Shown here: one piece after another, positions 2,184-41,694 of the stretch | Layout of the letters: each line of letters begins with the position of its first letter | Numbering within the stretch: position 1 is the first letter of the stretch | DNA from: Escherichia phage vB_VIPECOTPH05B | Direction: 5' to 3' (one strand) | DNA length: 44,015 nucleotides | Sequence record: PQ429080.1 | Notes under the pieces: model-generated | The model's input: the letters and a program-made list of their open reading frames with translations, nothing else | Told to the model about the DNA's origin: nothing | Database searches by the model: none | Program-made: the position numbers and the translations under genes

Positions 2184-4430
2184 CTACATTTTAACTTTTA
2201 CAAACCCGTTAGCGTCCCTATACAGCCGCCCAGCAACTGTCGGTACTGTGTCGGTCAGTGATGGGAACGATACGTCATCGTCTGCACTAAACAATCCACT
2301 GGCGCTTATGTTTGCAAATTGCACATCACCAGCATTTATGGAGAATTCAGGCATTGTCAAGTTCGCTCCTAACCTGTTAGTGGAGTACTGGGGTGACATC
2401 ACGAACAGGTGCTCGTTTGTGGGAATGCTGCCTGTGATGATAGTACCCACCCCGCTAACCCCCGATACATTCAAGTCACCCTGTATATTGATGATGTTGC
2501 GCCCCGCGCTGCCAACATAGTTTATAAACTTACACCCGTATACGTAGGCATTAAACGAGCAGTTTTTTACCTGAGAAGAGGCGTCAGTACCCAATTGCAG
2601 CGCGTGCACAGCCGTAGCTGGCGTACTGTTCATTGGCGCCCCAACAAATCCGTGGAACATGTTAGCATCGCTAGCCATAATAACAGCTGCGCCCGCTTGC
2701 CAGTTCGAATACACTCGGGTATTTATTACGGAGTTTCTAGCACCCTCAAAATACACCTGAGCGCTTGCTGCGCCCTCAAAATGGCAGTTGCTAATAAAGG
2801 TGTCGTAGCCTGCCACGTACAGCCCGTAGCGCATACGGTTACTGTATAGAGGTGTCACGTTGGCATCCCCGAAAGCCCACACATGCATCTGAGAGCCGCG
2901 AGTACCCCCACCACCACCATAACGGATACCATCATAGGTGTTGTGTGCTAGCAAACCTGCGCTACGCACCATCAAATGGTCTGATTGGTTGTCGGAAGAA
3001 CCACCAATAACTATACCATGTTGCCCAACCATATCTACTCGGATATCCGAGTACTTGCTTGGAGCCATGTATTTTATACTGGTATTACCCCTGCCCCCCA
3101 GGTTTACCCCCACGCCTCTGCAGTACCCAGCACGGATGCCTTTTAGATTTGTACCCGCCCCGTAAATCCGGAGGCACTCAGTATGCGACCGAGTATTTTC
3201 AGCGGTCCCATCCCAACCTCCCTCAATTATAAGGTCCTCTATGTAGATGGAATTCACCATAGCCGAGGGCACGTTTACCGTAAGATAATCTCCGGCTGGC
3301 GCGTTGCGCGACTTAACTATAGCATCATCCCAACTGCTTAAAGCCAAAACCCTAGAGATGCCTTCCACCCCAACAACTTTTACGCTGTCAGGTAAAATCC
3401 AGGGGCCGGACGTGGCGTAGGTTTTGGGCCCCAGATAGATTGGGAGGGACAGGCTCGCAGCGTATTCCGCAGCCGAGTTTAGGGCTGCAATGTCATCTGT
3501 GACCCCATCCCCGACGGCCCCAAACTGTTCCGGAGTTATAAACCACAGTACCAGCTTAGGTATAATTGAACCCGCTTTATAGTCTAGCGCGGACTGTACT
3601 GTGCCGCCCTGCGAAGTTCCAATGTAACCGGCACCAGACGAGCTGCTCAGCATGGCGAGTATATTGGCTAACGCAGACGTATCTGCCTCTGTGTCTATGC
3701 CAATAGTACAATCCACCAAGGTGCCCGCCGGTAGTACTGAGGTGAATTTAATAGACCCATCAATGACATCGTAAGAGTACCCAGCTGTCTGGGTTACACC
3801 ATTTACGCGAACCTTAGCCTTAGTGAAAGGCATGCCGGGAGTTACGGTATCCGTAGCAGTTGTCAGTACAGTCCACCAAGGGAAGCTGTTAGTGTTTGCA
3901 TTGAAGTGAGTCTGCTCCAGATTCACTATACGCGTATCCAGTTCAGCGTCAGCAGCCTCACGAGCAGCTGCCTCAGCATCTACTCGCACATCCAGCCGGG
4001 CATCCCCGGCATCGACGTATTGCTTGTTCGCAGCGTCCTGTGCATCTACTGGGTCGCCCAGGTTCGTGATGCGGTAACGATGCATATTAATGTCGCCATA
4101 GAAGCCTTCGATATAGCGGCCCTCAACCAGCTCTTGAGCCAGGTGCAGGAGCTGCATATTCTGGGTATCTACGTTTACTTCGATGAACGGAGCACCACTA
4201 GCAAATTCAATGTAGAGGTACTCTCGTTCAGTCTTACGAATGAGCAGTACCTCCGTCTCTGCAGATAGCGCCGAATTCAGTCGAATATTGGTGGAGCTGG
4301 TCCAAGTAAAGGCGGTGGTCTCGACGCCATCCAAATAAACGTGAATATAGGACTTATCCAGGTACTCAATATCGCACTGGATATCCTGAGTACCTGCAGG
4401 CTTTACCGACTCTTGCCAGCTGAATGCCAT
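2184..4430 (-). CDS. Tail fiber / tailspike protein (T7 gp17-like N-terminal adaptor plus beta-helix-like C-terminal domain)
   Basis: 748 aa; N-terminal about 150 aa resembles the conserved gp17 tail-attachment domain; the remainder is Gly/Asn/Ser/Thr-rich in a way typical of right-handed beta-helix receptor-binding or depolymerase domains. Confidence 0.75.
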   Translation of the reverse strand: MAFSWQESVKPAGTQDIQCDIEYLDKSYIHVYLDGVETTAFTWTSSTNIRLNSALSAETEVLLIRKTEREYLYIEFASGAPFIEVNVDTQNMQLLHLAQELVEGRYIEGFYGDINMHRYRITNLGDPVDAQDAANKQYVDAGDARLDVRVDAEAAAREAADAELDTRIVNLEQTHFNANTNSFPWWTVLTTATDTVTPGMPFTKAKVRVNGVTQTAGYSYDVIDGSIKFTSVLPAGTLVDCTIGIDTEADTSALANILAMLSSSSGAGYIGTSQGGTVQSALDYKAGSIIPKLVLWFITPEQFGAVGDGVTDDIAALNSAAEYAASLSLPIYLGPKTYATSGPWILPDSVKVVGVEGISRVLALSSWDDAIVKSRNAPAGDYLTVNVPSAMVNSIYIEDLIIEGGWDGTAENTRSHTECLRIYGAGTNLKGIRAGYCRGVGVNLGGRGNTSIKYMAPSKYSDIRVDMVGQHGIVIGGSSDNQSDHLMVRSAGLLAHNTYDGIRYGGGGGTRGSQMHVWAFGDANVTPLYSNRMRYGLYVAGYDTFISNCHFEGAASAQVYFEGARNSVINTRVYSNWQAGAAVIMASDANMFHGFVGAPMNSTPATAVHALQLGTDASSQVKNCSFNAYVYGCKFINYVGSAGRNIINIQGDLNVSGVSGVGTIITGSIPTNEHLFVMSPQYSTNRLGANLTMPEFSINAGDVQFANISASGLFSADDDVSFPSLTDTVPTVAGRLYRDANGFVKVKM

Positions 4431-15714: not shown

Positions 15715-16191
15715 TTATTTAAGTACATTAGCAGATGCATAGGTGTGCATCTTCGCTTTAGCTTTTAGATAGGCATCCCGCGCTGCTTGTTTGCAGTCAA
15801 AATGCCCGAGGTGTGTTGTCTTACCGCCTAGCTTTATGTAGGCCCGCCACTTGTTAGCGCGGGAATCCCAACAATAACCTTTCCACACAGAGTTCTGAGC
15901 ATTGCCTGATTTATCAACTAGGCGCAGGTTCTCGATTCGATTGTCTGCTTTATCCAGATTAATGTGGTCCACCATCATTCCCTCGGGTATATCCCCATGG
16001 TGCATGAACCAAATAAGCCGGTGCGCATATTCTCGTACCCGACCCAGTGCCCCACGGTCCCAGGTCACGCGGCGATATCCCCAGTTATTCTGGTAGGTAT
16101 CCCCTAAGCGTCCAGTAGCCTTGTTAATCAAGCGCCCATCTTCTGTGTAGGTATAGCGATTGGCTAGTTCTTGCAAGAGATTAATCTCCAT
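15715..16191 (-). CDS. HNH homing endonuclease with C-terminal AP2-like DNA-binding domain
   Basis: 158 aa; HNH motif (HRLIWFMHHGDIPEG ... DHINLDKADNRIENLRLV ... NAQN) and AP2-like C-terminus (WRAYIKLGGKTTHLGHFDCKQAARDAY); inserted between scaffold and capsid genes. Confidence 0.8.
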   Translation of the reverse strand: MEINLLQELANRYTYTEDGRLINKATGRLGDTYQNNWGYRRVTWDRGALGRVREYAHRLIWFMHHGDIPEGMMVDHINLDKADNRIENLRLVDKSGNAQNSVWKGYCWDSRANKWRAYIKLGGKTTHLGHFDCKQAARDAYLKAKAKMHTYASANVLK

Positions 16192-30392: not shown

Positions 30393-30866
30393 CTAAACCT
30401 CTAAATATCCCAGAGAATTGGCGGCCGCCTTTCTGGCAGCAGCGGCCTCTTCCAGTGAGTGGAATCTTCCCAAACGCACTTGCTTTCCGTCCCGGTTTAC
30501 GTATGCCGACCAGCGTTTCCGCCTGGCATCGTATGACACCCCGGGGACTCCAGAACTATTGCGCTTATCCGTGGTTTTGTTTCGGTTATTTAGTGTCACC
30601 GGAACTGCCCTGAGATTGTCAATACGGTCGTCTTCCCGGTTTCGGTTTATGTGGTCTATAACGCACCCACTAGGAATATCCCCGTAGTGCATTTCCCAAA
30701 CAATCCTTGCGCGTTTGTACGCCCTTCCATTTAACCCCACAACCCAGCGGTTGTGGTGCCTTTCCAGGTACCCCGCCAATTTACCAGGCTGACACGCGCC
30801 ATTTGGGCTGGTGTGGGTCCAGTATAGTTTACCATCCTTGTACGTGAAGTGTTCTTTCCAGTTCAT
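30393..30866 (-). CDS. HNH homing endonuclease with AP2-like domain (paralog of 15715..16191)
   Basis: HNH motif (RIVWEMHYGDIPSGCVIDHINRNREDDRIDNLRAV) and AP2-like C-terminus (WSAYVNRDGKQVRLGRFHSLEEAAAARKAA); track ORF begins at GTG 30872, first ATG is 30866. Confidence 0.8.
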   Translation of the reverse strand: MNWKEHFTYKDGKLYWTHTSPNGACQPGKLAGYLERHHNRWVVGLNGRAYKRARIVWEMHYGDIPSGCVIDHINRNREDDRIDNLRAVPVTLNNRNKTTDKRNSSGVPGVSYDARRKRWSAYVNRDGKQVRLGRFHSLEEAAAARKAAANSLGYLEV

Positions 30867-31018
30867 TTCCACTTAGCCCTCCGAGCCTTGTTGATAGCCA
30901 GATGCACAATCAGCTGGCTGCTATCCAGTGCGAATCGTTTACGGAAAGTACCTGCAGATGCAGCGTACGCCTTGATTACCTCGTCGTCGAGGTAGTTAAT
31001 GTCTGACGGTTTAAGCAT
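30863..31018 (-). CDS. Small hypothetical protein (51 aa)
   Basis: Hand-translated: MLKPSDINYLDDEVIKAYAASAGTFRKRFALDSSQLIVHLAINKARRAKWK; AGGAGG 6 nt upstream of ATG; TGA stop overlaps the HNH ATG. Confidence 0.3.
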   Translation of the reverse strand: MLKPSDINYLDDEVIKAYAASAGTFRKRFALDSSQLIVHLAINKARRAKWK

Positions 31019-34472: not shown

Positions 34473-35528
34473 TTAACCATCCACAATATTATCGTATCCG
34501 CCCCAGTCCTCTACGACTCTGGTGCCTAGTTCAATCAGTTCTTCTTTGAAGCCGTAATCGGAGAACACCATGATGTACTCCGCCGCCTTCGCTGGATTCT
34601 CCTGCACCCAGCTAACCAGCTGCTGTTTAGAAAGCTGTGACACTACACGGAACGCAGCCAGCAATTGCGGGTCCTCGTCCGGCGGCATATCCCACGGCTG
34701 CCGTAAACTGAGCGTCGAAGCAGAGAGCCACTGGTCTGGCTCCAGTACCTTCGGGTCCCGCTCAATCGGAAGGTGCGAGAACGTACCATCTTGCAGTACC
34801 CGCTCAAGCACTTGCCCCAGGATGTTCAGGTCCAGTACCTCATCCGGAGTGTGTTCGTGCATGTACCCTACGCCGACGTTGGTGCACTCAGGTATAATTC
34901 CAACGAACTCGGCTGAGTCAGTGTACACCCCCTTCTGTAAGTGCTGCTCCGTGCGTCCCAGGCGCTCTGCTAGGGTCTTTGCAAAGGTATCAGAGCAGCA
35001 GCGCATATACCTTTGATGCGTAATGATTCCGTCGCCGCGTCGGTCGAAGCTAATCATTGCCTTGACCCCAGTCCAAAATCCAGAGTCATCCTTGACCGAT
35101 GCAGCGCTACCCTCGCAGCCTACCTCTTCATCCACGAAGAAGCAGTAGCGTCCATGCACACCCCGTCGCAGCATCTCCAGCATCAGATAGATACCGGCAC
35201 CACAGTCAGCACCCAAGCAGTCAGCTTGTTGCGGATTCTTTACGAACAGTACACCCTTGTTAGTGCAGCCGACGTCCGGCGCAGCGCTGGTTGGCCTCGC
35301 CACTGTGTCGAGATGAGACGTAAACGCTACGTCACTTTGCTCTGAGTCCCCCACCAGCACGAAGTAGTTCCCGTGCTTGTCCTTTACGTAGTGCATACCA
35401 CTACCCAGCGCCTGTAAAGACTGCATAAGCAGCGGCTCAAACCACTTAGTGCTTGCCCAGCTAGGCCGGTGCGTTTGCAGTATCTGCAAGAGCAGCTGCA
35501 CATCAATCCCGTGCGGATTCAAGAACAT
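34473..35528 (-). CDS. Putative zinc metallopeptidase / deacylase (M20/M28/M42-like)
   Basis: 351 aa; candidate metal ligands in the expected order: FTSHLDTV, GADCGAG, DEEVGCEGS, YMHEHT. Family from motif pattern only. Confidence 0.5.
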   Translation of the reverse strand: MFLNPHGIDVQLLLQILQTHRPSWASTKWFEPLLMQSLQALGSGMHYVKDKHGNYFVLVGDSEQSDVAFTSHLDTVARPTSAAPDVGCTNKGVLFVKNPQQADCLGADCGAGIYLMLEMLRRGVHGRYCFFVDEEVGCEGSAASVKDDSGFWTGVKAMISFDRRGDGIITHQRYMRCCSDTFAKTLAERLGRTEQHLQKGVYTDSAEFVGIIPECTNVGVGYMHEHTPDEVLDLNILGQVLERVLQDGTFSHLPIERDPKVLEPDQWLSASTLSLRQPWDMPPDEDPQLLAAFRVVSQLSKQQLVSWVQENPAKAAEYIMVFSDYGFKEELIELGTRVVEDWGGYDNIVDG

Positions 35529-35869
35529 TAAGCTGCCTCCTCTACTTCTTCTTCATCATCGTTTCCAAGGTACTTCTCTCCCAAGCAATCGGCTGCATGC
35601 TCAGTTAGAATTAACCCGTGCACTGGATGTTCTTCTGCGTGCTCAATAAGCACCTGCCGGTCCTGTGCATACACCAGTTCTTCTTGGTCGTGCACTACCC
35701 CTTCTACCGAACAGTGCTCAATGTCCGCGTCATATACATAGGCGTCGTGGTAATCAGACCAGGTGCAGTTCCAGCGACTATGCAGCCCTTCTCGGCCAAC
35801 TACATATACAAAGTCCCCATCTTCGACACAGCCGTCGCAGACCATTTCACCGTCGGCGGTTTCGTGCAT
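35528..35869 (-). CDS. Highly acidic small protein (about 113 aa), possible DNA-mimic-type host-takeover protein
   Basis: By my count about 31 D/E against 4 K/R in 113 residues, C-terminus NDDEEEVEEAA, plus CDGC/HC Cys-His pairs; start uncertain (alternatives at 35941 and 35974 overlap the upstream gene). Confidence 0.45.
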   Translation of the reverse strand: MHETADGEMVCDGCVEDGDFVYVVGREGLHSRWNCTWSDYHDAYVYDADIEHCSVEGVVHDQEELVYAQDRQVLIEHAEEHPVHGLILTEHAADCLGEKYLGNDDEEEVEEAA

Positions 35870-35873
35870 ATCA

Positions 35874-37202
35874 TCAGTGGAGTAACGCCCCCCCGCAGCA
35901 GCAGCACCGAGCAGACTCTGTACCTGCGTAGATGTATCCATCGGCTTCTTGCGCCTCGTACTCGTAGTCATCACGGATTACAAAGGCGTCATCCTCATAC
36001 TCATCTACGCCGCGCTGGCTGCTATCTAGGTATGGCATCAGCACTGCGCCGTTGTATGTTGGGTGCGGTATCCGCGCCAGCATGACCCCTTCGAGACACT
36101 CAGTGTTTCTGGTGTACCCATGCCCCCGCAGGATTGCATCCGCAGCGTTGCCATAAGCACGGACGTACTCTTTGGTTTCAGGTTTTACGATTGCTCGTGC
36201 CTGCACTTCGAAGTCGTCCCCGAACAGCTCCCCGGTATACTGGATGAATAGGCGCAACCCGTTATCCGGCAACCCGTGGCTAGTAGTAGCGTACGTCCGC
36301 ACAGGGCTATACTCAAATGAGTACCCGCTCATGCAGCTACTTGGGCCGTTCTCGTAGGCGTCGTACCACTCCTGCTCGGTCTTGCACAGGTACACTGTAG
36401 GCTCTACGTTCATAGCCTTGAGGTCTTCGATAGCATCGCGGAAGTCCACCCCGTTGCCATAGTAGTTAGCGAGCCACTTACCTACGCGCATCTCCACGCA
36501 GCGGTACTCAGTAACTGCGGCGAAGTCCTTGTGCATCCGCGGCTGCCCCAGCATCACGATGGGCTCGCCGTTGCGGAAGCCAAAGCCCAAAGGCACGGCG
36601 AATCTAGACACTACGAAGCCGTGCAACTTCATGAGCAGGGCAGCAGTATAACCATCGCGGATGCATCTGCTGTAATCGTAGCCAGTGTATAGGCGGCGCT
36701 GATTATCTTCTGGTGCAAGCATAATGCGCTCGAATAATTGCACGGCCTGCTTGTGCACCTTGTAGCCGGTTAACTCTTCGACGCGAGCAACTACGCGCTC
36801 AACCACTACATCATCACCATCATAGAAGTCTCGGCGCTGTTCCCAGAACTTGCTATCAATGGTGCGCCGCGCCGGGGCAAAGAGTTCGTAGAAAGTTCCG
36901 CTGTTATACAGGTCCACCTTTTGCAACGGGCCGAGAGTCCTCATCAACCCGCGGTATTTTGGGTGCAGTGCCCCGCCTATAGTCACCTCTAAGCCGGGAG
37001 TGAGCATGCTCACAGTGCGGAGACCCGTAAGCGCCTGCAGTGGACCTTCGGTGTGGGGGTGGTCAGCGCCCTGCATTTGCAAGTCCTGGAACGGGGTCCA
37101 GTAATCACCGCTGGAATACATTGATTCTTTCATCGGCAGTGCGTTTGCACCTTCCGGTAACACTACTTTCCATTCGATAGGTGCTGTGTTAGTCTCTTGC
37201 AT
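35874..37202 (-). CDS. Large early protein of unknown function (about 442 aa), C-terminus ends in CCCC
   Basis: Track ORF reaches 37496 but overlaps the upstream gene; the ATG at 37202 has AGGAG 9 nt upstream (alternative ATG at 37259). No kinase, ligase or Walker motif recognised. Confidence 0.5.
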   Translation of the reverse strand: MQETNTAPIEWKVVLPEGANALPMKESMYSSGDYWTPFQDLQMQGADHPHTEGPLQALTGLRTVSMLTPGLEVTIGGALHPKYRGLMRTLGPLQKVDLYNSGTFYELFAPARRTIDSKFWEQRRDFYDGDDVVVERVVARVEELTGYKVHKQAVQLFERIMLAPEDNQRRLYTGYDYSRCIRDGYTAALLMKLHGFVVSRFAVPLGFGFRNGEPIVMLGQPRMHKDFAAVTEYRCVEMRVGKWLANYYGNGVDFRDAIEDLKAMNVEPTVYLCKTEQEWYDAYENGPSSCMSGYSFEYSPVRTYATTSHGLPDNGLRLFIQYTGELFGDDFEVQARAIVKPETKEYVRAYGNAADAILRGHGYTRNTECLEGVMLARIPHPTYNGAVLMPYLDSSQRGVDEYEDDAFVIRDDYEYEAQEADGYIYAGTESARCCCCGGALLH

Positions 37203-37248
37203 TTTAATTTGCTCCTGGGTTAGTTGTATTTCATCGTACGTTAAGAGT

Positions 37249-37593
37249 TCAGCGTGCATACCACGCAGCGAGCTGTCTTTGCTTATAATACGAGCGCACA
37301 GCCGCCTTAAATCTAGTATAGGCTCCACGATATCCGTACCGTAGTAGTGCTGCAACCACATCGAACTGAATGTGCTCTTGCAACTGCCGCGCGGCAGCTT
37401 CTGTATACTCGCGGTACGTGGTGAGCACCACCGTAGAGTCCTGCCTACGAACTCGGAGGAGTCTACGCTCGACCGGTATGATTTGCTTGAGTTCATTAGG
37501 AACCTCTTTGAATGTTTCCCAAGTGCAGCCGCACTTGCCCTGTGTTTCCAGCAGACGCCAGCACAGCAGCGCTGTTTCGTCTACTGTGAGCAT
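37249..37593 (-). CDS. Hypothetical protein (114 aa), basic
   Basis: ATG start; overlaps upstream gene by 13 nt. Confidence 0.4.
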   Translation of the reverse strand: MLTVDETALLCWRLLETQGKCGCTWETFKEVPNELKQIIPVERRLLRVRRQDSTVVLTTYREYTEAAARQLQEHIQFDVVAALLRYGYRGAYTRFKAAVRSYYKQRQLAAWYAR

Positions 37594-37799
37594 GAGCAGT
37601 CCCTGAATATTACGTTCCGGGCCACTAGGGTGCTGCGGTCACTAGATATTAACCCACCAACCTTGTGCCCGGATGGTATCCACCGCTGCAAACGCTCTGC
37701 ATAGAACTCCGCGCGCTTATGCAGTGGGCCATCAAGTACAACCCTGTATAGTAACCCATTCGGGCGCTTGTATACGTCATACAGGTTCTGTTTGCTCAT
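37581..37799 (-). CDS. Hypothetical protein (72 aa)
   Basis: ATG overlaps the stop of the upstream small ORF (ATGA). Confidence 0.45.
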   Translation of the reverse strand: MSKQNLYDVYKRPNGLLYRVVLDGPLHKRAEFYAERLQRWIPSGHKVGGLISSDRSTLVARNVIFRDCSCSQ

Positions 37800-37975
37800 A
37801 CAATACCCCTTACATTAAACCGTAAGCAGTAGCCGCGCAGGGTCATACCCAGGCGCTGCGCTTGCTTCTCATAGTGCTGGCGCAGCGCTGCCTTCGCGTT
37901 GTACTCGCGCGCCAGTCCGTCTATTGTTGGTTGCTGCTTATGCATCAGCAGCGTCTCAGGATTCTTTCCGTGCAT
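37796..37975 (-). CDS. Small hypothetical protein (59 aa), basic
   Basis: Hand-translated: MHGKNPETLLMHKQQPTIDGLAREYNAKAALRQHYEKQAQRLGMTLRGYCLRFNVRGIV; GAGGT 7 nt upstream of ATG. Confidence 0.3.
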   Translation of the reverse strand: MHGKNPETLLMHKQQPTIDGLAREYNAKAALRQHYEKQAQRLGMTLRGYCLRFNVRGIV

Positions 37976-40461: not shown

Positions 40462-40494
40462 GCAAAAAGGGTAAGCAGACCCCTAAAGGTCTGC
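40462..40494 (-). terminator. Possible terminator-like hairpin at the 3' end of the HNH gene
   Basis: GCAGACC-6 nt loop-GGTCTGC stem overlapping the HNH stop codon, followed on the minus transcript by UUACCCUUUUUG. Confidence 0.3.
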
Positions 40495-40869
40495 GTGCAG
40501 TAAGCTATTGTAATCCCCATAGGTTACGTCGAACTCTCGCCAGTTAGTGTCGTAGTCCGGACTAGCCAATAACTCCTCTTTTGTGAAACATCTCCCCTCC
40601 TTAATCTGCGCTAGGTGAATGGCGCGGTGAGTGTCGGCGCTAACCAATATCAGGTTATCAAAGGCGCAGTTAAGACGGTTACTGTCACAGTGATGTACAT
40701 GGTAGCCAGAGCCGTAGCTAGTGATACCCAGTGCATCCATAACCACGGCTCTATGCAGCGCCATAGTCCTACGGTCCTTTTTACCGTTCTTACGTATACA
40801 CGCTGGACCAGCACCGTTAATCACTGGATAGCCCTCTTTATCAACCACAATCTTAAATGTTCTAGCCAC
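40483..40869 (-). CDS. HNH endonuclease (third HNH gene in the window)
   Basis: 128 aa; HVHHCDSNRLNCAFDNLILVSADTHRAIH motif; apparent GTG start with TAAGGAG 8 nt upstream; flanked by the two longest ORF-free stretches. Confidence 0.7.
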   Translation of the reverse strand: MARTFKIVVDKEGYPVINGAGPACIRKNGKKDRRTMALHRAVVMDALGITSYGSGYHVHHCDSNRLNCAFDNLILVSADTHRAIHLAQIKEGRCFTKEELLASPDYDTNWREFDVTYGDYNSLLHADL

Positions 40870-40879
40870 AACAATAACT

Positions 40880-41694
40880 CCTTACATAGTGATGAGTAGC
40901 GTAACCATAGCGACGATATCCCGGAGGGATAGGAGCGGAGGTTACAAGATTCTAGGGATAGCAGCCTACTGCGTAGGCACAGGGCTATCCTAGTGAATAC
41001 CTAGTAGGGACTAGTAAGGACTAGTATTAAGTAGTGTGTATATAGTGCCCTAAAACCCTCCTACTCCGGTTACTTCATTTCATAATAGCTTTCGAATGAA
41101 AGTAAGAGCAAAGGGATAGCATTGGGATAGCGCTGGGATAGCGGCAGAGTGTGGATGTGCGCCCTAGTGGGGAGCGCGCAGCGTAGCATATAATTAGCAC
41201 AATGTAAAGCCCCAAGGATAGCCAGTGGATAGCCTAGTGCATACTAGGGATAGCACTAGGGATAGCACCACAGCGCACTAGCTGGCCCACTAGGCAGGCA
41301 CAAAATAAGCAAGGCAGAGCGCACCCCTATGGCCCACAGGGAGCGCACAGGGAGCGCCTAGTGAACGCACAGGGATAGCACCAGTGCCCCATAGAGCGCA
41401 CAGGAAGCCCTACAAGGCACGCACAGGCAAAGCCATAGGGTAGCACTAGCAATAGCCCTAGCGCAGCGCAGAGAGCCACTGAGGCCCACTGGTGCGCCCT
41501 AGCAGGCCCACCCAGTGCCCCCCCCCTAAATTGGCGCTAGGCACCCCCTATGGGGGCAATTGGGCGCGCTGAGGGTGAGGGACCCTGCCGCGTGAGTATA
41601 ATAAATTTCGGGTTCAGGTATAGACGTGCACCCGGATAGCCCCAGATAGCCCCACATAGACGCCCAGTGCTTACTCTAGTACTTACCCTAGCAC
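40880..41694. repeat. ORF-free repeat-rich region: at least 10 copies of GGATAGC plus CACAGGG/CACTAGG motifs, a C9 homopolymer and short tandem repeats; probable genome-terminus region
   Basis: No ORF of 60 aa or more on either strand across about 800 bp; GGATAGC at about 40956, 41114, 41125, 41136, 41216, 41227, 41248, 41259, 41373, 41634 (first three tandem copies spaced 11 bp); C-run at 41518..41526. Confidence 0.6.
41059..41080 (-). promoter_or_regulatory. Conserved element AAATGAAGTAACCGGAGTAGGA, copy 1 (candidate phage-RNAP promoter)
   Basis: 21 of 22 nt identical to the copy after the RNAP gene; lies in the repeat region upstream of the HNH gene. Confidence 0.35.

Follow-up and report, generated by a model that had tools for sequence, protein, structure and literature searches.

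A conserved early gene of KP34-like phages, probably split naturally by one inserted nucleotide in a Klebsiella Drulisvirus genome

Comparative analysis of the whole 44,015-nt stretch of PQ429080.1 (hereafter the window, to which all coordinates refer) revealed that the minus-strand open reading frame of 442 codons at 35874..37202 is the 5' fragment, the front three-quarters, of a conserved early gene of about 557 aa. In our view this accessory early gene, conserved among KP34-like phages (PHROG 6980), is probably present here as an allele that was split in nature. The window represents the genome of a Klebsiella Drulisvirus (Autographiviridae), and the split gene is one of its early genes, encoded upstream of the primase. 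At the split site 53 relatives were compared, and 58 loci were scanned for the length of the open reading frame.

The 442-aa frame reported in the initial annotation is present with the C-terminal sequence given there; the product, hereafter the N-part, ends in ARCCCCGGALLH and reads ESARCCCCGGALLH before the stop. Its start at the ATG at 37202 is likewise upheld, both by the codon-position variation in 57 relatives and by a Shine-Dalgarno sequence, AGGAG, read from the sequence at 37212..37216 (minus strand), 9 nt upstream. Taken mechanically, the open reading frame extends to 37496 (540 aa). However, third-position variation over 37252..37496 in the 57 relatives peaks in the frame of an upstream early gene of 114 aa (0.29 versus 0.12 and 0.08), which occupies 37249..37593 on the minus strand according to the codon-position analysis and a match to PHROG 6167, and the N-terminal extension is interrupted by a stop in 5 of the 57 relatives. 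The codon-position analysis thus rules out the longer start at 37496. As the coding frame in this region is that of the 114-aa gene, the 98-codon extension (37203-37496) carried by many 655-aa database homologues is spurious, and the 655-aa GenBank versions should be read as bearing a spurious 98-aa N-terminus.

The disruption maps to a G7 homopolymer at 35888..35894 of the minus strand (C7 on the plus strand), which measures 7 nt in the window and its sibling and 6 nt in all 53 relatives, pointing to a +1 insertion. In each of these 53 relatives the 442-aa frame and the acidic frame downstream of it form a single frame of about 557 aa. In agreement with this, residues 1-438 of the family member SU552A gp09, which comprises 557 aa in one frame (the VLC3 homologue is a single CDS as well), aligned in a tblastn search to 37202-35889 in frame -1, while residues 438-549 aligned in frame -2 to the downstream frame, so that the reading frame switches at 35889/35890. 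This downstream frame (35528..35869, minus strand; hereafter the C-part) encodes 113 aa comprising the rest of a predicted zinc ribbon, a beta-hairpin domain and an acidic C-terminal tail, LGNDDEEEVEEAA (35531..35569, minus strand), with an Ala-Ala end. Only 4 nt separate its ATG from the stop of the N-part, no Shine-Dalgarno sequence being read before it, and third-position variation within it peaks in its own frame (0.231 versus 0.071 and 0.09). Both parts matched PHROG 6980, the N-part with E=1.3e-293 and the C-part with E=4.3e-71, profile positions 532-655 corresponding to residues 25-148 of the downstream open reading frame; the long open reading frame covered profile positions 1-536 (E=0), and a single uninterrupted frame over profile positions 99-655 was not found in the window. 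Among the 58 loci, 52 carried an open reading frame of at least 540 codons, the remaining six being a re-assembly of the window lineage (L060), two further split alleles (L061, L062), a nonsense allele (L022), a deletion (L055) and a locus truncated by the end of its contig (L043).

Since one G was inserted in the G-run right after the first CxxC, the N-part consists of family residues 1-438 followed by an out-of-frame tail, GCG TTA CTC CAC TGA (A-L-L-H-stop; 35874..35888, minus strand), created by the insertion, whereas any full-length product would be predicted to read CCCCGGRYSTDD at the in-frame junction. The proposal of a native C-terminus ending in a cysteine tail does not stand, since the last four residues and the stop are out-of-frame additions resulting from the 1-nt insertion, and the supposed overlap with a separate acidic gene dissolves likewise, as collinearity on PHROG 6980 and the tblastn alignments identify the acidic frame as the last quarter of this gene. 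The alternative, an early protein complete at 442 aa with a native Cys-rich metal-binding tail and overlapped by a separate acidic gene, could be argued from the good Shine-Dalgarno sequence and start and from the GenBank record with its two separate CDSs (PQ505478.1 annotates the N-part and the C-part in this way). However, both CDSs match one PHROG collinearly, the in-frame relatives all run on through CCCC into the "acidic" sequence, the ALLH end is out of frame, and the second CxxC is found in the downstream frame. We regard this reading as hardly credible; it is already refuted by the PHROG collinearity, the in-frame 6 nt of the relatives and the tblastn frame change.

The four TGC codons that gave the impression of a tail (CCCC; 35895..35906, minus strand) supply with their first and fourth cysteine the first CxxC knuckle, while the second, C-D-G-C within VCDGC (35828..35839, minus strand), provides the cysteines numbered C455 and C458 in the uninterrupted protein. 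C433, C436, C455 and C458 are conserved in at least 90% of 114 family sequences and invariant in alignment A3. The knuckles are flanked by beta strands in an AlphaFold2 model, with pLDDT values of 91-97 for 10-residue blocks across residues 420-470. By sequence, CCCC is thus one half of a predicted internal zinc ribbon (C433-x2-C436...C455-x2-C458) and not a tail: as the second knuckle is encoded in the downstream frame, the cluster is internal rather than terminal. The earlier idea of a metal-binding cysteine tail therefore holds in part, in that the cysteines are very probable metal ligands, while the terminal position does not apply. Assaying the 442-aa product for metal binding would probe just half a zinc site, and the "CCCC tail" frame and the "overlapping acidic gene" ought to be merged in annotation as one disrupted gene.

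We infer that the extra G arose by replication slippage in the phage itself and is not a sequencing error. Of about 50 SU552A genes searched by tblastn, gp09 alone is split in the window, five GenBank sibling records are 100% identical to the window across the split site, an independent Logan assembly of SRR30790004 matches the window without a difference (100%) over 7.3 kb, and 4 Logan contigs encode the 442-aa product in identical form. Alternatively, the phage could truly be G6 with an intact 557-aa gene, and the miscall could be shared by all sibling assemblies. It speaks for such an artefact that the split-site run is among only three homopolymers of at least 7 nt in the 44-kb window, and that the siblings differ from one another only at an intergenic homopolymer (C8/C9/C10; 41518-41526), which indicates that homopolymers in these data are either noisy or hypervariable. 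However, G7 is constant in the window, the five siblings and independent k-mer assemblies of the reads, no variation in tract length was found between close isolates (all siblings and re-assemblies being G7), and the remaining genes of the genome are unshifted. The same laboratory has used an Illumina MiSeq, SPAdes and Pilon pipeline for other phages (PMC10508110), presumably applied to this phage as well, and this platform rarely miscalls 7-mers. Unrelated data sets moreover show +1 alleles in which a run of only G4 has become G5, making a miscall there very improbable. An artefact is thus considered quite unlikely. A 557-aa homologue on a 44,014-bp Logan contig (P0275) was evaluated as an intact version of the same phage and dismissed, as it belongs to a different relative with an in-frame G6.

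The intact family corresponds to PHROG 6980, with SU552A gp09 (YP_009204798), fHe-Kpn01 Gp12 and the KP34 homologue among its members and PHROG 13313 as a remote relative, and has a wide distribution among phages, forming 325 clusters at 50% identity. In the protein of about 557 aa, a lineage-specific, mostly helical region (residues 1 to about 200) precedes a conserved alpha/beta core (residues about 230-420) with invariant Ser289-Cys290-Met291, Arg336, Tyr350 and Asp393, which is followed by the zinc ribbon, the beta-hairpin domain and the acidic tail. The AlphaFold2 model reached a pLDDT of 82, residues 270-540 being mostly above 90 (10-residue block means of 89-98). An Ala-Ala end is present in 47 of 114 family members (41%) and a final Ala in 59 of 114; the C-part of the window ends in ...EEAA. 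Gp12 (556 aa) of fHe-Kpn01 was detected by LC-MS/MS in virion preparations and for this reason excluded from the fHe-Kpn01 screen, no other screen of a close relative having been published (PMC7291057). The toxic Gp10 of the same phage was rejected as a homologue, since it is an unrelated protein of 69 aa and the true homologue is Gp12.

Family and fold searches identified no relative of assignable function, in line with the original description of a large early-region protein without an assignable motif. Pfam, NCBIfam and PADLOC contained no family match for the window protein, and when these databases and PDB sequences were searched with the window protein, an intact homologue and as many as 69 diverged family proteins, sub-threshold zinc-finger matches were all that emerged. 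Foldseek against the PDB returned nothing at E<0.1, and the structural matches in BFVD were exclusively uncharacterised phage proteins. A link to a structural or replication protein, which had been named as evidence against a novel activity, emerged from neither the sequence nor the structure searches. The label "Putative DNA mimic" given by one depositor (KPPK108.1) was set aside, as nothing lies behind it beyond the acidic tail. A weak and tentative resemblance to the GNAT-like fold, in topology only, was noted, the comparison including GNAT-fold acyl-CoA N-acyltransferases (e.g. PDB 3i9s, 7n1l, 2dxq) and the GNAT-like aminoacyl-tRNA transferases FemA (1lrz) and ATE1 (8tzv).

Directly downstream, a 351-aa M28-type di-zinc metallopeptidase is encoded at 34473..35528 (minus strand; PF04389, PHROG 4191), the ATG of which shares one base with the stop codon of the C-part. 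The match to Pfam PF04389 scored 23 bits (cut-off 21.3), and the set of co-catalytic metal ligands (H72, D74, D108, E134, E135, D162, H226) shows no variation among 7 peptidase homologues of 29-55% identity; for fHe-Kpn01 Gp13, an HHpred match to DapE at 99.78% has been reported (PMC7291057). All 6 distant relatives examined carry a peptidase homologue (E 1e-37 to 1e-135) as the next gene after the family gene. This synteny is based on the 6 distant loci and the Drulisvirus set, as profile scans found no sufficiently conserved stretch. Tentatively, the intact protein might be a putative Cys-dependent GNAT-like enzyme acting early in infection with the translationally coupled M28 peptidase on a host substrate, in takeover or counter-defence, an assignment we regard as possible rather than probable.

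Disruption of the gene is not restricted to the window. Within a survey of split alleles that amounts to a partial census (234 GenBank records exist), +1 G alleles were encountered in three other unrelated lineages, L061 (GAGGGG to GAGGGGG), L062 (AGGGGGG) and L071 (G7), which share an ALL[HR]-stop ending, while L022 carries a TGT to TGA nonsense change two codons past CCCC. The nearest neighbours of every split allele are intact alleles, and the N-part ends at codons 437-443 in five independent lineages. Larger losses occur as well, with deletions that take most of the gene and part of the peptidase gene (L072, L073) or the core of the gene (L055). The gene and the peptidase thus form a demonstrably dispensable module. 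Nevertheless, slippage alone does not readily account for the clustering of point truncations at one codon position, one of them by nonsense. The pattern hints at selection for the split, or at least at functional tolerance of it, as opposed to plain inactivation.

One reading of this clustering is functional fission, in which both halves would be made, the N-part from its own Shine-Dalgarno sequence and the C-part by restart at the ATG 1-4 nt past the new stop, and would act separately or re-associate at the zinc site, or in which loss of the C-terminus would stabilise or activate the N-part. The stops at codons 437-443 in five independent lineages, one via nonsense and not slippage, would fit this reading, as would the absence of point truncations elsewhere among the other disruptions on long contigs (in the fragment classes examined), all of which are large deletions. 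The start Met of the C-part is also present in the sequences inspected, and the N-part retains the whole of the predicted catalytic core (residues 283-393). On the other hand, the cut falls inside the zinc ribbon and not in a linker, the ATG of the C-part is devoid of a Shine-Dalgarno sequence, the partial census was biased towards 442-aa and 113-aa products, and simple loss of function would suffice for a demonstrably dispensable module. We therefore consider functional fission possible, although rather improbable.

The G-run could also be read as a programmed site, at which +1 ribosomal frameshifting or transcriptional slippage would give both a 442-aa and a 557-aa product. On G7, tRNA-Gly could re-pair perfectly once it has slipped by +1, or RNA polymerase could slip, the frameshift stop lies just 4 codons downstream, and similar alleles occur in several lineages. 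However, conservation is lacking here, as the codon pair past CCCC varies freely (GAGGGG, GAAGAG, GAATGT, GGTGAG and others), and 53 of 53 relatives are in frame without any slippage. No downstream RNA structure was predicted (121 nt; MFE -34 kcal/mol versus a shuffle mean of -36.8, z = +0.88), no Shine-Dalgarno-like stimulator is present upstream except the G-run itself, and GCG, the 0-frame A-site codon, is not a slow codon, which also counts against recoding. Programmed recoding is accordingly judged very improbable.

For the preferred reading of a naturally split allele, we propose the following sequence of events. Replication slippage would have added one extra G (G6 to G7) and shifted the frame just past the first CxxC. 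The open reading frame with its strong Shine-Dalgarno sequence would still be translated into a 442-aa N-part with a foreign ALLH end and an intact putative catalytic core, while the C-part would be made, if at all, via termination-reinitiation. Since the zinc ribbon would be severed, the protein may be at best crippled, a state that would be tolerated because the gene and its partner peptidase constitute a dispensable accessory module.

Repeated breakage at one spot or deletion is a pattern typical of accessory host-interaction or counter-defence genes, and it occurs here in natural Klebsiella phages that are therapy candidates. A bolder proposal, which we consider unlikely, is that PHROG 6980 and M28 proteins constitute an unrecognised two-enzyme early module found across numerous podophage lineages and in some other phages, and that truncations between the zinc knuckles are selected rather than neutral decay. 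If they are selected, they could allow the phage to evade a Klebsiella defence triggered by the C-terminal domain of zinc ribbon and acidic tail. Alternatively, they could stabilise the catalytic N-part by removing an Ala-Ala degron or an autoinhibitory domain. The split phage and its intact relatives provide a natural allelic series for testing the role of the module. The family is a good target for characterisation, being large, with enzyme-like invariant residues, tight M28 linkage and a conserved Ala-Ala C-terminus.

Comparison with known systems places these features in context. Apart from the tentative topological resemblance, the family differs from GNAT enzymes in that no Pfam GNAT match was obtained for the window protein, the intact homologue or the 69 members, the place of the Q/RxxGxG/A motif, which in GNAT enzymes follows strand beta4 and binds the pyrophosphate of CoA, is taken by a consensus YVRxYGDxxxLxxxLxxxGY without GxG, and the invariant Ser-Cys-Met, Arg, Tyr and Asp are not GNAT signatures. 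With zinc ribbon and treble-clef modules the family shares a pair of CxxC knuckles on beta-hairpins, spaced by 18-20 residues; LIM, RING, DZR, FmdE and TFIIB-type zinc-finger families gave weak matches, none passing the family-level HMM threshold, and, unlike in known zinc ribbons, the two knuckles in the window are encoded in different open reading frames. C-terminal Ala-Ala degrons of the ssrA type are recognised by ClpXP/ClpAP. The family resembles them in the Ala-Ala-COOH that follows an acidic stretch in 41% of its members, even in some only 20-25% identical, whereas AA is mostly preceded by E, K, I or V and not by L. Slipped-strand or contingency loci and frameshift pseudogenes offer parallels in the +1 change in a G-run, the premature stop, the recurrence across lineages and the dispensability of the gene. 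In contrast to contingency loci, the tract is not conserved, most alleles having no run beyond G4, its length is constant among the sibling isolates, and one truncation at the same spot is a nonsense substitution. The closest counterparts are the PHROG 6980 phages themselves, with 84-92% aa identity to more than 200 phages in GenBank and IMG/VR and the gene flanked, as in the window, by the 114-aa gene on one side and the M28 peptidase gene on the other; unlike the other members, the window gene is cut by the +1 G into frames of 442 and 113 aa.

The open reading frame at 35874..37202 on the minus strand, which encodes 442 amino acids and ends in ...GTESARCCCCGGALLH*, is real, and the start codon chosen for it in the initial annotation, the ATG at 37202 with an AGGAG 9 nt upstream, is right. 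The longest mechanical ORF extends to 37496 (540 aa) and many database homologues are annotated with this longer start (655 aa), the 98 in-frame codons that precede the true start (37203-37496, minus strand) recurring in many GenBank, UniProt and PHROG entries. This extension overlaps a real 114-aa gene (37249..37593; PHROG 6167), and alignment of 57 relatives revealed that variability across 37252-37496 is highest at that gene's third codon positions (0.29 vs 0.12 and 0.08); in the extension's own frame, the peak is on position 2. As 5 of the 57 relatives also carry a stop codon within it, we concluded that the extension is non-coding, and the start at 37496 was rejected for want of coding constraint in its own frame.

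Analysis of the 3′ end revealed that the ALLH-stop, previously taken for the native C-terminus, is produced by one additional G. The PHROG 6980 profile (655 positions, function not assigned) is collinear over two ORFs, with positions 1-536 matching the long ORF and positions 532-655 matching the 'acidic' ORF downstream (35528..35974) at its residues 25-148. The equivalent gene of phage SU552A, gp09, is a single 557-aa frame that adjoins the peptidase gene, that of VLC3 is also one CDS, and a tblastn comparison of gp09 with the window passes from frame -1 into frame -2 at 35889/35890. The coding strand of the window reads TGC TGC TGC TGC GGG GGG GCG TTA CTC CAC TGA. From the last TGC to CGY-TAC, exactly six bases (GAGGGG, GAAGAG, GAATGT, GGGGGG and others) are found in each of the 53 GenBank and IMG/VR relatives alignable here; the window and its sibling carry seven G at the same site. 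With six bases, the protein reads on ...CCCCGGRYSTDDMHETADGEMVCDGC... straight into the 'acidic gene', and the ALLH-stop is therefore frameshift sequence, while the supposed overlap with a separate acidic gene is one gene in two frames. The complete 442-aa protein with a Cys tail thereby gives way to a by-product of the frameshift. On this comparative evidence, it is almost certain that the 442-aa ORF and the 113-aa ORF downstream (35528..35869, minus strand) are one gene split by a +1 G, belonging to a family that is already catalogued but unstudied.

The cysteines themselves acquire a different context. Among 114 aligned family members, whose identity to the intact homologue P0014 ranges from 20 to 64%, C433 and C436, equivalent to Cys 1 and Cys 4 of CCCC, show at least 90% conservation, as do C455 and C458 (VCDGC); a nine-sequence alignment shows no variation at any of the four. 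In the AlphaFold2 model they sit on beta-hairpins (block pLDDT 91-97), and they make up both CxxC knuckles of a predicted zinc ribbon. As the frameshift lies two codons past the first knuckle, the second (35828-35839, minus strand) falls in the 113-aa ORF, and the alignment shows the tail cysteines to be half of a conserved four-Cys motif.

A sequencing artefact would be an alternative, as the G7 site (35888-35894) is among only three homopolymers of at least 7 in the genome, and the sole difference between the window and its siblings is the length of another run, an intergenic C-run (G-run on the coding strand) at 41518-41526 that is C9 in the window, C8 in PQ505478.1 and C10 in PQ505480.1 and reflects either hypervariability of the tract or noise in homopolymer calling. 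However, gp09 alone is split among ~50 genes compared between the window and SU552A, and G7 is constant in all five sibling GenBank records of one Philippine study (PQ505478, PQ505480, PQ505481, PQ505483, PQ505484), in which the region of the long ORF is 100% identical, compared with 80-91% identity to >200 other Klebsiella phages. Moreover, an independent Logan assembly of SRR30790004 reads matches the window at 100% identity across 7.3 kb, the exact 442-aa product occurs on four Logan contigs, and an earlier paper from a group with the same phage naming scheme used Illumina MiSeq, SPAdes and Pilon (PMC10508110), a pipeline that was presumably applied to these genomes as well. Since the same truncation event also recurs in other lineages, the extra G is very probably a real mutation.

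A search for other truncated or fragmentary products, favouring 442-aa and 113-aa products, revealed four further truncated lineages. L061 (SRR26874784) reads TGC TGC TGT TGC GAGGGGG CG (G4 to G5), L062 (SRR8506066) TGC AGGGGGG CG and L071 (ERR13957332) TGC GGC TGC TGC GGGGGGG CG; in L022 (IMG/VR UViG 3300045988_002414, locus about 3809-3814), TGT has become TGA two codons past CCCC (TGT GAA TGA CGC). In every frameshift case the upstream part terminates in ALL[HR](R)-stop; 1-4 nt past this stop, the Met within ...DDM(H/Q)E... opens an ORF of 113-116 aa. The nearest neighbours of every split allele are intact (87-99% nucleotide identity), whereas identity between split alleles is lower (82-87%), which argues for independent events, and all point-type truncations found by this search cluster at one place. 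Single deletions in L072 (ENA ERZ23867024) and L073 (Logan SRR30463208) removed most of the gene and the 5′ part of the peptidase gene, joining the 5′ end of the former to the 3′ part of the latter, and L055 (IMG/VR) is without residues 284-479, the conserved core. These natural deletions show that the module of both genes is dispensable in some lineages.

Programmed recoding at the G-run is probably not the explanation, as the two codons past CCCC are not conserved, relatives have no need of a frameshift, and the downstream RNA shows no folding advantage over shuffled sequences (z = +0.88). Some +1 slippage may take place at a low level on GGG-G, or RNA polymerase may slip along the G7 run. 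Termination at UGA is leaky when a C follows, and some read-through to full-length protein is conceivable in L022. Overall, we lean towards the split being a null allele; a tolerated or selected fission is possible yet distinctly less probable, and the small remainder falls to artefact. The insertion would have arisen by replication slippage, translation of the upstream part would continue from its own SD, the downstream part would be obtainable solely via termination-reinitiation, and the severed zinc ribbon would leave a crippled protein.

Directly downstream, an M28-type metallopeptidase gene (34473..35528, minus strand; Pfam PF04389 above cut-off, PHROG 4191) shares one base of its ATG with the stop codon of the 113-aa ORF. 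HHpred related the fHe-Kpn01 homologue to DapE (PMC7291057). A peptidase homologue is the next gene downstream in 6/6 distant relatives examined (blastp E 1e-37 to 1e-135), which are 21-39% identical and stem from marine sediment, other metagenomes and other podophage lineages, and in which the two reading frames often overlap. H72, D74, D108, E134-E135, D162 and H226, the residue set that binds the co-catalytic metals in M28 enzymes, are invariant in seven peptidases; RCCSD and IPECTN motifs are likewise invariant (window 34473-35528, L063-L069). With identities of 29-55% for the peptidase vs 21-39% for the family gene, both form, as judged from sequence, a conserved two-gene module with the peptidase as the better-conserved partner.

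The window is a complete, reverse-complemented Klebsiella Drulisvirus genome (KP34-like; Autographiviridae, Slopekvirinae) of 44,015 bp with every gene on the minus strand. In the sibling record, three genes (15715-16191, 30393-30872, 40483-40869, minus strand) carry an HNH homing-endonuclease annotation; one separates the scaffolding gene from the major capsid gene and another directly precedes the DNA polymerase gene. The SU552A annotation has no corresponding ORFs at those positions. The tail fibre (2184-4430, minus strand) aligns with SU552A gp46 through its N-terminal 353 residues alone (69% identity), and the second tail protein of SU552A, gp54, has no match in the window, differences that are the usual swap of receptor-binding or depolymerase modules. 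A 59-aa early protein (37796-37975, minus strand) matches Pfam DUF7267 (E=1.6e-24), a domain that the distant relatives L064, L065, L071 and L072 also encode, a few genes before the family gene.

The description as an uncharacterised early protein holds for the intact product. Its gene belongs to the early region and is located upstream of those for primase, helicase and DNA polymerase, and Pfam, NCBIfam, PADLOC and PDB-sequence searches with the window protein, the intact homologue and up to 69 divergent members gave no match, zinc-finger hits all being sub-threshold. For the homologue fHe-Kpn01 Gp12 (556 aa), HHpred found nothing, and LC-MS/MS detection in purified virion preparations, which led to its omission from a toxicity screen, shows that the protein is made (PMC7291057). 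An exhaustive HMMER search (E<=1e-3) yielded 325 clusters (50% identity) with a common core equivalent to residues about 232-475, the first ~190 residues being confined to close relatives. Among 69-114 sequences, S289, C290, (M291), R336, (Y350) and D393 are invariant and Y283, G286, P300, Y304, G351, G362, P390, Y391, G422 and the zinc-ribbon cysteines near-invariant; the motifs are GPxSCM, HPxRVYA, ARAxVN, YVRxYGD and MPYLDG. Such a pattern resembles a cysteine-centred active site, and comparison across the family shows a conserved core linked to the peptidase. The intact protein would then be a Cys-dependent transferase- or hydrolase-like enzyme that joins the M28 peptidase in acting on a host target at an early stage of infection, an enzymatic reading that we regard as rather doubtful.

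The AlphaFold2 model is confident (pLDDT 82.4, pTM 0.74, 10-residue block means 89-98 over residues 270-540), and BFVD contains the fold in Shigella, Vibrio, Pectobacterium, Pseudomonas, Caulobacter and Lactococcus phages, always labelled uncharacterised. The C-terminus is Ala-Ala in 47/114 members, against about 1% expected by chance (our own estimate from amino-acid composition), and Ala in 59/114, usually after an acidic stretch, and the Ala-Ala enders include members only about 20% identical (A1 family alignment; window 35531-35536). Interest now lies in the recurrent break point, the conserved peptidase pairing and this terminus. Compared with known systems, the core is not classed as a member of the GNAT family but may be GNAT-like in topology, and the Ala-Ala ends resemble ssrA-type C-terminal degrons, by analogy with which they may serve as a C-terminal degron or recognition tag.
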